IMG/VR virus record: IMGVR_UViG_2529292977_000011
Length of the DNA: 4,589 nucleotides
DNA from: a virus
Taxonomy: Duplodnaviria > Heunggongvirae > Uroviricota > Caudoviricetes
Reading direction: 5' to 3' (one strand)
How positions within the stretch are numbered: position 1 is the stretch's first letter; the number at the start of each line of letters is the position of its first letter. The notes under the pieces are model-generated. The model saw only the letters and a list, made by a program, of their open reading frames with translations. It ran no database searches and was not told the origin of the DNA. Positions 1-4,589 of the stretch are shown here, in pieces. Position numbers and translations under genes: made by a program.

Positions 1-344
1 TCCACATCTTTCACCAGCCGATCCCTCCGTTCGACGATCTCACGGTAATATTCAGAGCTGTGACTGCGCATACGGGCCACCAGCAGAGGCGGCATTGCCT
101 TTTCGATCGCCGGTAACAGAGCCTGAATTTTTTCAACAGCATCAGGGGTGTCTTTATCCAGCCAACGGAAAATTTTCTGGGTATTACGAGCCAGGGCTTC
201 CGGATGGCTGTCGTCGTACAGTTCCGGGAACGTCATCCCCAGCTCGAAATAAGTCCGGGCTATTTCAGCTGCAGGAACTTTCTCACCGTCCGGATAGGCC
301 CAGGCATTGATCGCCATGCGGATGTGCTCATGTTTGATTTTCAT
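1..344 (-). CDS. ydaT: YdaT-family (CII functional analogue) prophage regulatory protein; 5' portion only, ORF runs off the left edge of the window
   Basis: Minus-strand ATG at 344..342 preceded by a GGGGGA RBS. The frame is open to position 1 (about 114 codons: MKIKHEHIRMAINAWAYPDGEKVPAAEIARTYFELGMTFPELYDD...QKIFRWLDKDTPDAVEKIQALLPAIEKAMPPLLVARMRSH...). The MKIKHEHI start and the RWL/EKIQ..LLPAI pattern match my recollection of YdaT from lambdoid cryptic prophages. Start overlaps the upstream cro-like stop by 4 nt (ATGA). Not on the ORF track because it is truncated by the window edge. Confidence 0.6.
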   Translation of the reverse strand, partial: MKIKHEHIRMAINAWAYPDGEKVPAAEIARTYFELGMTFPELYDDSHPEALARNTQKIFRWLDKDTPDAVEKIQALLPAIEKAMPPLLVARMRSHSSEYYREIVERRDRLVKDV

Positions 345-568
345 GAATCCCCCTTTCCTTCGCCCTGAGTGGTATCCTTCTTTTTGTAAAGTTCTGGGTT
401 CAAAGATAATTTCCCCTTGGAGTATGCAGCAGCTTCCGCAGCCCTCCCCTTCGGAACTATTTCACCAGGACGCTTACGCCACATGTAAATAGCTTCGCGG
501 GTTATCCCATAAAAATCGGCAACCCTCTGAACAGAACCAAAAAACTGGACAAGTTCATCAACTCGCAT
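341..568 (-). CDS. Cro-like small HTH regulator (DicC/YdaS-type), 75 aa
   Basis: Minus-strand ATG at 568..566 with GGGAGG RBS 5 nt upstream (complement of 574..579). Product MRVDELVQFFGSVQRVADFYGITREAIYMWRKRPGEIVPKGRAAEAAAYSKGKL... has the FGS...helix-turn-helix...VPxGRA pattern of DicC/YdaS-like Cro proteins. Divergent from the repressor gene. The ORF track starts it at a TTG 12 nt upstream; I prefer the ATG with the RBS. Confidence 0.75.
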   Translation of the reverse strand: MRVDELVQFFGSVQRVADFYGITREAIYMWRKRPGEIVPKGRAAEAAAYSKGKLSLNPELYKKKDTTQGEGKGDS

Positions 569-662
569 TTTACCTCCCAAATCTAAGTATTTTTAGATTA
601 CAAGATAATTTTTTTTAGGTCAATGCAATCTAAAATAATTTATATTCAATTTGCAGGAGAAA
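569..662. promoter_or_regulatory. Divergent promoter/operator region between the cro-like and cI-like genes (OR-like)
   Basis: Perfect inverted repeat AATCTAA-N6-TTAGATT at 580..599; further AATCTAA half-site at 627..633; TTAGGT at 615..620. Minus-strand promoter candidate for the cro-like gene: -35 TTGACC (complement of 618..623), 17-nt spacer, -10 TAATCT (complement of 595..600), overlapping the operator. Plus-strand -10 candidates TAAAAT (631..636) or TATATT (641..646) with a poor -35, as expected for a PRM-type promoter. Confidence 0.55.
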
Positions 663-1357: not shown

Positions 1358-1405
1358 AATTAATCTAGATTTACCTTGACTGAAAAACTAAATACTTTTA
1401 GATTT
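1358..1405 (+). promoter_or_regulatory. Second operator cluster (OL-like) with an outward, pL-like promoter
   Basis: 10-bp perfect palindrome AATCTAGATT at 1362..1371; TACTTTTAGATT at 1393..1404 is 11/12 identical to TATTTTTAGATT at 588..599. -35 TTGACT (1376..1381), 17-nt spacer, -10 TAGATT (1399..1404) overlaps the operator half-site and points into the downstream plus-strand operon. Confidence 0.45.
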
Positions 1406-1584: not shown

Positions 1585-1737
1585 ATGGATATGCTCAATC
1601 TTGGCAACAATGAATCTCTGGTGTGCGGAGTATTCCCCAACCACGACGGCACGTTTACCGCGATGACGTATACCAGAAGTAAAACGTTTAAAACCGAAGC
1701 TGGCGCGCATCGCTGGTTAGCAAGAAACGCTAACTGA
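1585..1737 (+). CDS. Small hypothetical protein, 50 aa, first gene of the early-left operon (ydfA-like position)
   Basis: ATG at 1585 with GAGGT RBS 4 nt upstream (1576..1580); TGA at 1735..1737. Product MDMLNLGNNESLVCGVFPNHDGTFTAMTYTRSKTFKTEAGAHRWLARNAN. Below the length cutoff of the supplied ORF track. Size and position match ydfA of the K-12 Qin dic operon, but I cannot confirm sequence identity from memory. Confidence 0.5.
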   Translation: MDMLNLGNNESLVCGVFPNHDGTFTAMTYTRSKTFKTEAGAHRWLARNAN

Positions 1738-1801
1738 TTAGCGCCAGTAAAAACAGGTTTCCACAGGTTAATTTACCCTGAAAAGTCAGGGCATAACACG
1801 A

Positions 1802-1865
1802 AAGCGCACGGCGAAGTTAGTCTCTCTGTATAGGTCGTCGTTAAATTTAATTCGACCGTGCGCTT
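1802..1865 (+). repeat. Long-range inverted repeat (10-bp perfect arms) in the untranslated spacer upstream of the DicF-like sRNA
   Basis: AAGCGCACGG at 1802..1811 pairs with CCGTGCGCTT at 1856..1865; pairing can extend by CGAA (1812..1815) with TTCG (1851..1854) around a bulged A. No ORF with a credible start or RBS in this interval. Confidence 0.4.
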
Positions 1866-2000
1866 CTGGTTGTGGCAATCCGCGAAATGGCGCGGCGGTA
1901 AGTATGGCGGGGTTATTCCTTCCCCCGTTGAGGACACCGGGTTGTCAGGTTGACCATACGCTTAAGTGACACCCCAGCCACAACAACCTCTGTTATCACT

Positions 2001-2039
2001 TTTCTGGTGATTCGGCGGAAATGGATATCCGCCCTTTTT
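2001..2039 (+). ncRNA. dicF: DicF-like sRNA, compact variant (about 39 nt)
   Basis: TTTCTGGTGA at 2001..2010 matches the 5' end of E. coli DicF as I recall it (UUUCUGGUGACGUUUGGCGG...CUCUGCCGCCCUUUUU). It is followed by a GGCGGA/TCCGCC hairpin (2014..2033) and CTTTTT (2034..2039), an intrinsic terminator. It lies about 180 nt upstream of dicB, as in the Qin dic operon. The internal stem-loop of canonical 53-nt DicF is absent. The 5' end is inferred, not seen. Confidence 0.5.
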
Positions 2040-2217
2040 AAAGTGAATTTTGTGATGCGGTGAATGCGGCTATGCGCACGCGGAACAGTTAAAGCAGTAA
2101 GGCGGTCTTTTACTGGCGTAACGAGCATCAACTAACCCGACGTTAATTGTTAACTGGTTAACGTCACCTGGAGGCACCAGGCACTGCATCACAAAATTCA
2201 TTGTTGAGGACGCGATA

Positions 2218-2406
2218 ATGGAAACGTTATTACCAAACGTTAATACGTCTGAAGGTTGTTTTGATATTGGTGTTCTGCTCAGTAATAAAGCGTTTACTGA
2301 GGATGCCATTAATATGCGGAAATATGAGCCTTATCTGCTCAATGATAATTCCATTCTTTCCCGAATTGCCCTTATTAAACTTGGTATTTTCGGAGAACGT
2401 CAATGA
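2218..2406 (+). CDS. dicB: DicB-like cell-division inhibitor (MinC-activating small protein), 62 aa
   Basis: ATG at 2218 with GAGGA RBS (2206..2210, 7-nt spacing); TGA at 2404..2406. Product METLLPNVNTSEGCFDIGVLLSNKAFTEDAINMRKYEPYLL...; the N-terminal two thirds match my recollection of K-12 DicB (xxTLLPNVNTSEGCFEIGV...FTEDAIN.RK). Same length as DicB and same position after DicF. Confidence 0.8.
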   Translation: METLLPNVNTSEGCFDIGVLLSNKAFTEDAINMRKYEPYLLNDNSILSRIALIKLGIFGERQ

Positions 2407-2591
2407 CTTCAGCATTTGCACTGATGATGACGGTTTTTCTTATAACGGGTGAATCACAGAATGTGATTACCGGAATTTATGCCAGTAAAGAATCCTGCCT
2501 CCAGGCAAGAGACGAGCAAAAAATTTCTGGTGAATGCCTACCGGTAAAAAAAGTATCGCTGTACCTGAATAACGAAACACCGGCTGGATAA
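2403..2591 (+). CDS. ydfD: YdfD-like small membrane lysis protein, 62 aa
   Basis: ATG at 2403 overlaps the dicB stop (ATGA); GGAG RBS at 2392..2395. Product MTSAFALMMTVFLITGESQNVITGIYASKESCLQARDEQKISGECLPVKKVSLYLNNETPAG has a hydrophobic N-terminal segment. Position directly after dicB and size match ydfD of the Qin prophage. Confidence 0.7.
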   Translation: MTSAFALMMTVFLITGESQNVITGIYASKESCLQARDEQKISGECLPVKKVSLYLNNETPAG

Positions 2592-2683
2592 CCCTCCAGC
2601 CATATTAACACCATACCAACGGATTAAAAATGCCAGCAATGGCAGGGATTTGTTCACCCTTAAATCTGTAATGAGGTTTATCA

Positions 2684-3928
2684 ATGAGCACTGATAAAGA
2701 AGAATTTGCGCTATATTGCGAAGCAAAAAATGACAAAGTCAGAAAACGTCTGGGAATTAAAGGTGGTTTTTACTGGACTACAGCAAAAAAATTATCTGTT
2801 GCCATCTCCCGCTGCATTACCGCAATGGATGACAACGATTATGATGAAGACGACTTTAAAAAACCCGTTCGCGTCCATTTACCCGTTGTGAATGACCTTC
2901 CACCTGAAGGCGTGTTTGATACCGAATTCTGCAACCGATACGAAAAAGGCGGGGAAGATGGCATTACAATGGTATTTATCGCGCCCTCTCCCTCCGTGCA
3001 GGAGAAACCAGCCAGTACTGACAATACCAACGTCAACGGCGAAGACATGACGGAGATTGAGGAGAATATGCTCCTGCCGGTTTCTGGTCAGGAGCTGCCC
3101 ATTCGCTGGCTTGCGCAACACGGCAGCGAAAAACCAGTAACGCACGTTGCACGGGAAGAACTTCAGGCATTACATATAGCACGGGCGGAAGAACTGCCGG
3201 CTGTTACTGCCCTGGCCATTTCTCACAAAACAAAGCTGCTCGACCCGCTGGAGATTCGCGACCTTCACAAACTGGTACGCGACACTGACAAAGTTTTCCC
3301 TAATCCCGGTAATTCAGACCTGGGACTGATAACTGCTTTTTTCGAGGCATACCTGGACGCTGACTACACTGATCGGGGTCTGCTGACAAAAGAGTGGATG
3401 AAAGGAAATCGTGTTTCGCGTATCACCCGTACGGCTTCCGGTGCAAATGCCGGTGGCGGGAACAAAACCGATCGCAATCCGAATTTAGTACACACCTTCG
3501 ATACGCTGGATGTGGAGATTGCAGCAGCCACACTTCCGATGGATTTTAATATTTATGAAATTCCGGGCAGCGTTTATCGTCGCGCAAAAGAAATCGTCCT
3601 GAAAAGAGAAAGTCCGTTCAAAGAATGGTCCGCAGCACTTCGCGCAACCCCGGGTATTCTGGACTATTCCCGCGCCGCTATTTTTGCACTTATCCGGAGC
3701 GCTCACCCTGAGTTTTATCACTACCCGGGACGCCTTCAGGGGTATATCAACGCCTACTTAACGGAGACTGATCACGAGAACCCCAGCAAGGAAACTCTCA
3801 CTGCTGCACGACATACACCGGAAAAAGATATCCTGGAAGAAGTTAACCGCGAACTGTCTGCTAAGCAGGAAACAGAAGAAGAAAATGATGAAGAAAAACC
3901 GCAACCATCTTGCGCAATGGCAGAATGA
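2684..3928 (+). CDS. Uncharacterised 414-aa prophage protein with acidic N- and C-terminal tracts; possibly a full-length YdfE-like protein
   Basis: ATG at 2684 with GAGG RBS (2673..2676, 7-nt spacing); TGA at 3926..3928. Long uninterrupted ORF with only short antisense ORFs opposite. Acidic clusters DDNDYDEDD (near N-terminus) and EEENDEEK (C-terminus); glycine-rich SGANAGGGNKTD segment. I recognise no catalytic or DNA-binding motif. Confidence 0.8.
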   Translation: MSTDKEEFALYCEAKNDKVRKRLGIKGGFYWTTAKKLSVAISRCITAMDDNDYDEDDFKKPVRVHLPVVNDLPPEGVFDTEFCNRYEKGGEDGITMVFIAPSPSVQEKPASTDNTNVNGEDMTEIEENMLLPVSGQELPIRWLAQHGSEKPVTHVAREELQALHIARAEELPAVTALAISHKTKLLDPLEIRDLHKLVRDTDKVFPNPGNSDLGLITAFFEAYLDADYTDRGLLTKEWMKGNRVSRITRTASGANAGGGNKTDRNPNLVHTFDTLDVEIAAATLPMDFNIYEIPGSVYRRAKEIVLKRESPFKEWSAALRATPGILDYSRAAIFALIRSAHPEFYHYPGRLQGYINAYLTETDHENPSKETLTAARHTPEKDILEEVNRELSAKQETEEENDEEKPQPSCAMAE

Positions 3929-4461
3929 TAATCAGAAGAAATCTGGCAAAAGACCGTTTTACAGTACCAAAAACACAGGCGGGAACCAATCGTGTGATTC
4001 ACCTTATTAAGCCCGCAATCGACGCTCTCCGGAGTCAGATGGCACTAACGAGACTGAGCAAAGAGCATATCATCGATGTTCACCTCAGAGAATTCGGCAG
4101 AACAGAGAAACAAAAATGTACCTTTGTTTTTCAACCTGAAGTGTCAGCGAAAGTAAAAAATTATGGCGACCATTTTACCGTTGACTCAATAAGGCAGATG
4201 TGGGACGCAGCGGTAAAGCGTGCCGGAATCCGCCATCGCAAATCGTATCAGTCGAGACACACTTATGCCTGCTGGTCGTTAACAGCAGGAGCTAACCCGG
4301 CATTCATTGCAAACCAGATGGGCCATGCAGATGCGCAAATGGTGTTTCAGGTGTACGGGAAATGGATGTCAGAAAATAATAATGCGCAGGTAACGCTGTT
4401 AAATACACAGTTAAGCGAGTTTGCCCCAACCATGCCCCATAACGAAGCGATGAAAAGTTAA
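3910..4461 (+). pseudogene. Tyrosine recombinase (phage integrase) remnant: C-terminal catalytic half only
   Basis: Product has the integrase beta-hairpin Lys region (FTVPKTQAGTNRVIHLIKPAIDAL), the HxxR motif (SRHTYA), MGH and the nucleophile Tyr region (VYGKW). It is only about 180 aa: the arm-binding and core-binding domains and the box I Arg are missing, because the upstream sequence belongs to the 414-aa ORF in another frame. Possible starts are TTG 3910 or ATG 3925, the latter overlapping the upstream TGA as ATGA; no obvious RBS. TAA at 4459..4461. Confidence 0.7.
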
Positions 4462-4589
4462 TTTTTTATTTATCAATTAGTTAGATTGAATGACTCTTGA
4501 AATCCATAATTCATAGATGTTTTTTACTATTCTGTGGGTTTTTGGGTGTTTTCTAAGTTTTTTCAGATGGTTGTATTTTTTCTAAAAAT

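Follow-up and report, generated by a model that had tools for sequence, protein, structure and literature searches.

A compact allele at the dicF position of an O157:H7-type lambdoid prophage is predicted to have lost the known DicF targets

DicF is a classic prophage-encoded small RNA (sRNA) tied to cell division, sugar metabolism and the virulence of enterohaemorrhagic Escherichia coli (EHEC). We have analysed a stretch of viral DNA of 4,589 nucleotides (nt; IMG/VR record IMGVR_UViG_2529292977_000011, Caudoviricetes), here called the window, which comes from a lambdoid prophage of the E. coli O157:H7 type and spans its immunity and early-left region. Positions 2001-2039 on its plus strand hold a short element, TTTCTGGTGATTCGGCGGAAATGGATATCCGCCCTTTTT, at the position of dicF. 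The reading that we favour, with slightly better than even confidence, is that this is a payload-less dicF allele, i.e. a short intrinsic terminator and processing site gating dicB, the released RNA being devoid of the DicF regulon. Termination, processing, the existence of the small RNA and its lack of activity in trans are all steps that we infer.

When the window was aligned with the Qin dic locus of E. coli K-12, the element fell exactly on dicF (b1574), between a ydfA-like gene and dicB, and position 2001 coincided with the annotated 5' end of K-12 DicF. The flanks are nearly identical to those of K-12 over approximately 240 nt upstream and 55 nt downstream. In the alignment K-12 reads UUUCUGGUGACGUUUGGCGG-UAUCAGUUUUACUCCGUGACUGCUCUG-CCGCCC and the window UUUCUGGUGA--UUCGGCGG-AAAUGGAUAU-CCGCCC. 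Thus nt 1-10 of K-12 DicF (UUUCUGGUGA), the base of the stem and the tail of C plus U5 are kept, while nt 11-12 (CG) are deleted, one U is changed to C, and the 27-nt interior (nt 21-47) is replaced by 10 unrelated nt, AAAUGGAUAU. The junction in the compact element reads UGAUUCGGCGGAAAUGG. It is the genomic position that sets the element apart from chance, and not the fold, as its folding stability is unremarkable compared with shuffled sequences (z = -1.27) and the window contains 10 terminator-like sites where 5.1 +/- 2.4 are expected.

The element consists of UUUCUGGUGAUUC, a GGCGGA/UCCGCC hairpin, a C and U5. In the predicted fold a 13-nt unpaired 5' end is followed by a 6-bp stem with an 8-nt loop, with a minimum free energy (MFE) of -10.7 kcal/mol for the 39-mer and -9.6 kcal/mol for the hairpin by itself. 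The hairpin at 2014-2033 was also called terminator-like by a consensus terminator scan, and it has the attributes of an intrinsic terminator (GC-rich stem of at least 5 bp, loop of 3-8 nt, U-rich tract within 2 nt); five of the six base pairs are G-C, and loop size and U-tract length lie near the weak limit for such terminators. K-12 DicF, on the other hand, folds into one long hairpin of 37 nt and -15.1 kcal/mol (7-bp base stem, internal loop, 4-5-bp upper stem and 9-11-nt loop), compared with 20 nt for the compact form. The probability of being unpaired for the 13-nt 5' end is nevertheless similar, 0.64 in the compact element and 0.66 in K-12.

The original prediction, made from the sequence alone, had proposed a shortened DicF derivative at the dicF locus, and the positional orthology with K-12 bears this out. 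Retention of the terminator base stem and the U-tract is confirmed by sequence, fold and alignment alike. The claim that the 5' element is retained is right for nt 1-10, which are identical, but it overlooked the CG deletion and the U to C change, and the stem does not follow directly, a 3-nt spacer (UUC) lying in between. A length of 39 nt against 53 nt had been suggested; the element is indeed shorter, but the K-12 figure excludes the U-tail, and like for like the lengths are 34 versus 53 nt, or 39 versus 58 nt when U5 is counted. Nor does K-12 DicF possess a separate, additional stem-loop that could have been lost; what the compact element lacks is the upper part of the single long hairpin.

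Two other readings of the element itself were discarded. An alternative, anti-terminator-like 5' hairpin with CGGAAA was rejected, as the terminator fold dominates, the accessibility of the seed equals that in K-12, and K-12 has a comparable nascent alternative. A short protein was likewise rejected: open reading frames (ORFs) at 1950-2063 (plus strand) and 1913-2131 (minus strand) overlap the element, but they are unannotated in K-12 and in the O157:H7 strains 86-24 and EDL933, and the region is a conserved untranslated leader. The Prokaryotic Genome Annotation Pipeline (PGAP) annotates no non-coding RNA at the compact locus, which is uninformative since canonical dicF is also unannotated in RefSeq genomes. 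As a separate observation, the 10-mer TTTCTGGTGA recurs exactly at 2524-2533 (plus strand), within the ydfD-like ORF, which may be due to chance; with one mismatch allowed, three matches occur in the window against 0.34 expected, and the K-12 locus has only the dicF copy.

The covariance model of the Rfam DicF family (RF00039) gave no match at E<=10, either on the whole window or on a 121-nt segment (1960-2080), whereas K-12 dicF, used as a positive control, scored 76.7 bits with the same model (gathering threshold 48 bits). Of the features defining the family, the element has the location, an untranslated region between ydfA(BC) and dicB, and, in sequence and predicted fold, the terminator with its GGCGG/CCGCC base stem and C plus U5 tail. 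It lacks the 5' feature UUUCUGGUGAC(G/A/U)UUU with the xylR seed, of which only nt 1-10 are retained, and the extended hairpin with its upper stem CAGU/ACUG and the loop carrying the anti-ftsZ/pykA sequence UUUUACUCCGUG. Judged from its sequence, the element is a homologue of dicF by position and descent that fails the sequence-and-structure definition of the family. Canonical copies vary as well: the minus-strand CP-933M copy of EDL933 differs from K-12 in its 5' end (AUUCUGG, not UUUCUGG), in having A at nt 12 and at nt 38, and in a U6 tail. The "identical" EHEC DicF copies thus differ in the xylR and the ftsZ/pykA pairing regions.

K-12 DicF uses its 3' region to pair with ftsZ and pykA, whereas pairing with xylR is through the 5' end, as shown by mutation and compensation (Balasubramanian et al. 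2016, PMC5069750), and point mutations in these pairing regions already abolish regulation (PMC5069750). We scanned for pairing with a home-made IntaRNA-like calculation in ViennaRNA, in which windowed duplex energies are combined with the opening energies of both RNAs; it superseded a global duplexfold, which gave unrealistically long duplexes. With K-12 DicF the scan recovered all four validated sites: ftsZ at mRNA -21 to +1, i.e. at the ribosome-binding site (DicF nt 25-44, -4.7 kcal/mol), xylR at +11 to +20 (nt 6-15, -12.6 kcal/mol), pykA at -18 to +1 (nt 26-43, -12.5 kcal/mol) and manX at +35 to +53 (nt 35-54, -11.5 kcal/mol). For pchA it gave +16 to +34 (nt 32-51, -4.5 kcal/mol), which is the best predicted site only. 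The compact RNA reached +4.1 kcal/mol on ftsZ, -2.0 on xylR (a different, weak site), -2.1 on pykA, +1.6 on manX and -0.8 on pchA, these being the best values anywhere on each mRNA and none of them at a validated site. Every mapped pairing region, for ftsZ, xylR, pykA and manX as well as the best predicted pchA site, is deleted or altered in the compact allele: the xylR seed GGUGACGUUU is broken because of the CG deletion, and the ftsZ, pykA, manX and predicted pchA pairing stretches are simply absent. The compact RNA is thus predicted to have lost regulation of ftsZ, xylR, pykA and manX and, being without any mapped regulatory segment, would not be expected to regulate these targets.

These results also bear on what had been proposed about function. 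The expectation that the target range should differ from that of K-12 stands, but instead of a modified range the calculation predicts loss of all four targets. The idea of a minimal DicF with a functional seed finds no support, with no covariance-model match and every defined pairing region deleted or altered. Absence of both a covariance-model hit and seed conservation had been named as grounds for abandoning the assignment to DicF; the former is what we found, while the first 10 nt of the seed region are conserved.

The compact form was found in 442 of 5,426 complete E. coli genomes, mostly O157:H7 and other Shiga toxin-producing E. coli (STEC) and usually as one copy per genome, as counted with a 71-nt query able to seed only on compact copies; canonical dicF is present in 3,974 of these genomes. 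The compact form also occurs in the O157:H7 strains EDL933 (in prophage CP-933U) and 86-24, and in Escherichia albertii including the type strain. None was found among 50,697 deposited phage genomes, 22 of which carry canonical dicF, and when metagenomes were scanned for the hairpin core, nearly all matches were due to chance and in unrelated surroundings, with a dic context in one of 60 stretches.

In EDL933 the copies were located in seven fetched stretches of 2.5 to 50 kb each, as the coordinates of the old assembly do not map onto the re-sequenced genome. Three canonical copies were found, in CP-933M, O and P, which are also listed as EDL933 dicF prophages by Balasubramanian et al. (PMC5069750). 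An RNA-seq study of the strain reports four Rfam DicF copies of 52, 52, 56 and 52 nt (PMC5331693). The 56-nt plus-strand "DicF_3" matches, in length, strand and roughly expected coordinate, the sole sub-threshold DicF hit in the Rac-like prophage CP-933R. The compact copy, in CP-933U at 2,802,005, is outside these four and is thus a fifth dic-type locus of EDL933, invisible to similarity and Rfam searches. Reviews quote "four copies" of DicF for the strains Sakai and 86-24, and these may already include the compact copy.

The distal flanks of 45 compact loci are strongly mosaic and make up 30 distinct haplotypes, but between -11 and +45 the only variable positions are nt 22 (in the loop, U or C) and nt 34. 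Three compact alleles were distinguished: one with the loop AAAUGG (as in the window), one with the loop AAACGG (including the E. albertii type strain) and one with the tail CCGCCA. With a hairpin-only pattern, which leaves the 5' end unconstrained, the 13-nt 5' end was invariant in 48 of 48 loci in a dic context. An intact dicB ORF of 62 amino acids (aa) follows in 42 of 44 compact loci, with at least seven DicB N-terminal variants represented. The invariance of the compact block is suggestive of constraint but no proof of it.

The operon around the element is laid out much as in K-12 (Table 1). A promoter-like site lies between the repressor terminator and the ydfA-like ORF; K-12 ydfB and ydfC are absent, and the ydfA-like ORF almost directly precedes the conserved leader. 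The leader region (1738-2000, plus strand) folds more stably than shuffled sequences (z = -2.33) and matches no Rfam family. The 5' end of K-12 DicF is made by RNase E, and RNase III is reported to make the 3' end of the 72-nt K-12 DicF within a downstream duplex (PMC5069750, PMC9438474). In the predicted precursor fold, UGGUGA of the 5' element pairs with an upstream UAUCA in K-12 and the window alike, and the position of the RNase E 5' end lies in the loop; the base at -2 is C in the window and A in K-12. On this structural model it may be processing, and not a seed function, that keeps the first 10 nt conserved. Downstream, a 16-bp long-range duplex that is also part of the MFE fold of 2001-2225 would, by analogy, be the counterpart of the K-12 RNase III duplex region, with a similar role for RNase III. 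DicB itself shares 39 of 62 residues with K-12 DicB, the N-terminal half being conserved and the C-terminal half divergent.

Table 1. Features of the window around the compact dicF allele.
Feature	Position	Strand	Basis and remarks
dicC/cro-like gene	341-571	-	window gene order
LexA/CI-type repressor, full-length, ~215 aa	663-1310	+	annotated as LexA family protein in 86-24 and EDL933; own terminator at 1330-1350
Sigma-70-like promoter TTGACT-17-TAGATT, likely of the ydfA-dicF-dicB operon	1376-1404	+	consensus scan; presumed role from K-12 layout
ydfA-like ORF, DUF1391, 50 aa, first gene of operon	1585-1737	+	ORF list; 86-24 and EDL933 annotation of identical locus
Conserved untranslated leader	1760-2000	+	near-identical to K-12 leader upstream of dicF
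Predicted precursor stem-loop AUCACU/GGUGAU	1995-2011	+	loop holds position equivalent to K-12 RNase E-made 5' end; same fold in K-12
Single-stranded 5' element UUUCUGGUGAUUC	2001-2013	+	nt 1-10 equal K-12 DicF nt 1-10; sequence, fold and alignment
Compact terminator hairpin GGCGGA-AAUGGAUA-UCCGCC	2014-2033	+	-9.6 kcal/mol; in place of 37-nt K-12 hairpin
C followed by U5 tract	2034-2039	+	same as K-12
Long-range duplex, 5' arm	2041-2056	+	predicted, 16 bp with 2187-2202, -20.1 kcal/mol; sequence identical to K-12
Long-range duplex, 3' arm	2187-2202	+	just upstream of dicB ribosome-binding site
dicB, cell-division inhibitor, 62 aa	2218-2406	+	ORF; annotated dicB in 86-24 and EDL933
ydfD-like ORF, DUF1482, 62 aa, last conserved gene of operon	2403-2591	+	ORF list; 86-24 and EDL933 annotation
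Truncated RecE-type exonuclease ORF	2684-3928		runs into integrase fragment
Integrase fragment, 552 bp	3910-4461		within CP-933O-type right arm

According to the favoured reading, transcription from the repressor-controlled operon promoter would proceed through the ydfA-like gene and the conserved leader of approximately 240 nt, and would then meet a short Rho-independent terminator ahead of the toxic dicB. The main job of the hairpin would be in cis, stopping a fraction of the transcripts before dicB, with an RNase E-type processing site upstream of it and an RNase III-type duplex downstream. As a by-product, an RNA of approximately 34-40 nt would arise, with the first 10 nt of DicF and the terminator stem but without nt 11-12 and the upper hairpin. 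Such an RNA would not be expected to inhibit FtsZ synthesis or to regulate the known DicF regulon, and division inhibition in this prophage would be left to DicB alone. Since dicB is intact in nearly all compact loci the operon appears to be maintained, so that a gate before dicB would still have something to control. The compact allele is moreover widespread and stable, occurring in hundreds of genomes, in E. albertii and on 30 haplotypes with only two variable positions, which we count in favour of this reading.

Several observations weigh against the idea of a payload-less gate. The conservation argument is biased, since most positions of the hairpin were prescribed by the search patterns, and a comparable island of conservation surrounds dicF in canonical loci. 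The predicted loss of pairing rests on the home-made calculation described above. The 13-nt 5' end, accessible as in K-12 and invariant in compact loci, would also fit a trans-acting seed. The weaker hairpin (-9.6 versus -15.1 kcal/mol) is followed by only five U's and might terminate transcription inefficiently. No entry for the compact locus is found in the EDL933 RNA-seq table (PMC5331693), and expression of dic operons is poor under laboratory conditions. Finally, further DicF targets have been inferred that depend on residues altered in the 5'-end mutant DicF3 (PMC5069750), and the compact RNA might retain some of these.

A rival that we consider rather doubtful is that the compact RNA is a trans-acting, Hfq-dependent sRNA that has acquired a new target set through its 5' end UUUCUGGUGAUUC, perhaps with the help of the 8-nt loop, and hence is a retargeted DicF and not an empty one. 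Besides the DicF3-dependent targets (PMC5069750), it draws on the single-stranded 5' end and its invariance in loci found without constraining it, on the retained terminator hairpin and U-tail, which form the core of an Hfq-binding module, on the conserved processing context, and on the precedent that EHEC prophages encode unusually short (51-60 nt) Hfq-bound sRNAs (PMC4104026). However, no target can be proposed, the best energies on all tested mRNAs being -2.1 kcal/mol or weaker. Pairing of UGGUGA with UAUCA in the precursor processing hairpin accounts equally well for the conservation of UGGUGA, and the seed is not conspicuous among adjacent flanks that are just as invariant from -11 to +45. 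Compared with K-12, a shorter U-rich stretch precedes the hairpin, and the compact locus goes unmentioned in the literature searched on Hfq in EHEC by cross-linking and analysis of cDNA (CRAC) or cross-linking, ligation and sequencing of hybrids (CLASH).

Another possibility, which we regard as improbable, is that the element is a decaying, functionless remnant in which a toxic RNA was removed by internal deletion or replacement and which persists by linkage with prophage genes. DicF is toxic when expressed (PMC5069750), and this toxicity could favour or permit loss-of-function alleles; O157 strains carry three canonical copies elsewhere, so that the compact copy would be redundant; the compact form is missing from the deposited phage genomes, a few of which contain canonical dicF; and the window is itself a rearranged, degraded prophage arm. 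Yet stem, U-tract and processing elements are intact in every allele, across the 30 haplotypes and both species, although decay should have broken the 6-bp stem somewhere. Downstream, dicB is intact in nearly all loci, and the interior has been exchanged cleanly, with the hairpin still closed, instead of being lost in a ragged deletion. Least credible, and very improbable, is functional equivalence with DicF, with repression of ftsZ and the other K-12 targets maintained in spite of the shorter length. Position, the first 10 nt and the terminator are common with DicF, but the ftsZ, pykA, manX and best predicted pchA pairing sequences are gone, the xylR seed is broken, the covariance model does not match, and in K-12 even point mutations in these regions suffice to abolish regulation (PMC5069750).

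Pattern scans anchored either on the 5' element plus the downstream flank or on the hairpin core revealed three architectures at the dicF position: the canonical 53-nt form (with minor variants, -15.1 kcal/mol), a type 3 form of 51 nt (-16.5 kcal/mol) and the compact form (-9.6 kcal/mol). A fourth, the Rac type of 56 nt (-18.7 kcal/mol), is found upstream of kilR in Rac-like phages and in EDL933 CP-933R. With RF00039 they scored 76.7 (canonical, K-12), 43.5 (type 3) and 39.1 bits (Rac type), and the compact form gave no match. In each of the four a GGCGG/CCGCC stem closes a single hairpin, and they have the U-tract and the sequence downstream of it in common, but their interiors are unrelated. 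The conserved feature across architectures is thus the terminator scaffold. The 3' arm of the compact hairpin, GAUAUCCGCC, is identical in 9 of 10 positions to that of type 3 and the Rac type, GAUGUCCGCC, but in only 5 of 10 to the canonical one, which hints that the compact form perhaps arose from a type-3-like hairpin by internal deletion.

Type 3 was seen in E. albertii NBRC 107761 (positions 4612-4661 of the retrieved stretch) and in two more stretches, with the sequence UUUCUGGUGACGUUUGGCGGCAUCUGUUUGCCCAUGAACUGAUGUCCGCCC, a canonical 5' end and an unrelated interior; its predicted pairing with xylR is kept (-11.0 kcal/mol), and those with ftsZ, pykA and manX are not. In EDL933 CP-933R (8460-8515 of the stretch) and in phage vB_EcoS-666R9 (approximately 1460-1515), kilR has upstream of it the Rac-type hairpin, GGCGGCAUCAG...CUGAUGUCCGCC plus U-tract. 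The kil-type genes of Qin- and Rac-type prophages are thus preceded by the same terminator scaffold.

From the four architectures we tentatively suggest, as a possibility well short of even confidence, that lambdoid prophages have a modular device at the dicF position, in which a constant terminator scaffold stands before a kil-type gene (dicB or kilR) and an exchangeable hairpin interior chooses the target mRNAs. If so, each of the four forms would represent an alternative state of the payload, the compact one being either an empty scaffold or one retargeted via its 5' end.

Comparison with known systems puts the compact element in perspective. It resembles K-12 Qin DicF (RF00039) in its slot, leader, downstream flank, first 10 nt, base stem, tail and long-range duplex, and its biogenesis is presumed to be the same; it differs in being 34 instead of 53 nt long, in lacking nt 11-12 and the upper hairpin, in its weaker hairpin, and in the missing model match and the predicted loss of pairing. 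sRNAs derived from terminators in 3' untranslated regions or within operons, such as SroC, SdhX and CpxQ, have an established seed and targets. Like these, the compact element has an internal Rho-independent terminator and, presumably, RNase E cleavage, and sequence outside a short functional segment evolves freely; unlike them, it is an allele without the regulatory segment of its parent family. The Rac-type hairpin (EDL933 "DicF_3", PMC5331693) shares the GGCGG/CCGCC closure, the U-tract and downstream flank, the similar 3' arm, and a place in a lambdoid early-left operon, in front of a small killer gene directed at FtsZ, but it has its own 5' single-stranded region, a 42-nt hairpin, a measurable model score and kilR, not dicB, downstream. 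The laboratory mutants DicF3, DicF9, DicF21 and DicF23 (Balasubramanian et al. 2016) show that loss of pairing residues removes subsets of targets and relieves toxicity; these are point substitutions in a full-length RNA, whereas the compact form is natural, 19 nt shorter and has all mapped pairing regions gone.

A further RNA motif was noted in the structured region between dicF and dicB. The segment 2032-2250 (plus strand), which includes the hairpin CACCUGGAGGCACCAGGCAC, gave a sub-threshold match to Rfam STnc100 (29.5 bits, threshold 47), and the Rac-type locus of EDL933 CP-933R (8517-8703 of the retrieved stretch) scored 35.5 bits, also below threshold. The above-threshold STnc100 copies of EDL933 adjoin the late-gene regulator Q, and a related RNA motif may therefore occur in early-left and late operons of lambdoid prophages. 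Read counts of EDL933 STnc100 were considered as a proxy for read-through and rejected, the true copies lying beside Q in the late region, approximately 10 kb away and on the other strand.

The window as a whole is mosaic. EDL933 CP-933U matches positions 1-2678 with 99.8% identity, and a CP-933O-type right arm matches 1771-4589 with approximately 97%; in none of the complete E. coli genomes in the collection is the whole window colinear. The same left part is found in strain 86-24, where the prophage lies at tRNA-Ser beside mtfA and yeeJ. The repressor of the window, at approximately 215 aa, is longer than the 135-aa DicA of K-12, and if it self-cleaves like CI and LexA, the dicB operon could be SOS-inducible.

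A further dic locus, carried by approximately 8% of complete E. coli genomes and among them by the reference O157:H7 strains, is missed when dicF copies are counted by similarity and Rfam. As a natural allele with terminator and dicB but no mapped DicF pairing region, the compact form offers a control for separating a role in cis (attenuator) from one in trans (sRNA), and the variable interior on a constant scaffold, with at least four architectures, is relevant to the gain and loss of targets by terminator-derived sRNAs. If the dicF position is indeed modular, it would provide a natural series in which the origin, exchange and loss of a terminator-derived sRNA could be followed, and O157:H7 would have a fifth, functionally distinct dic locus that was perhaps left in place by DicF deletion studies. 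Should the compact RNA turn out to have targets of its own, the EHEC multi-copy dicF deletion mutants would need re-interpretation.

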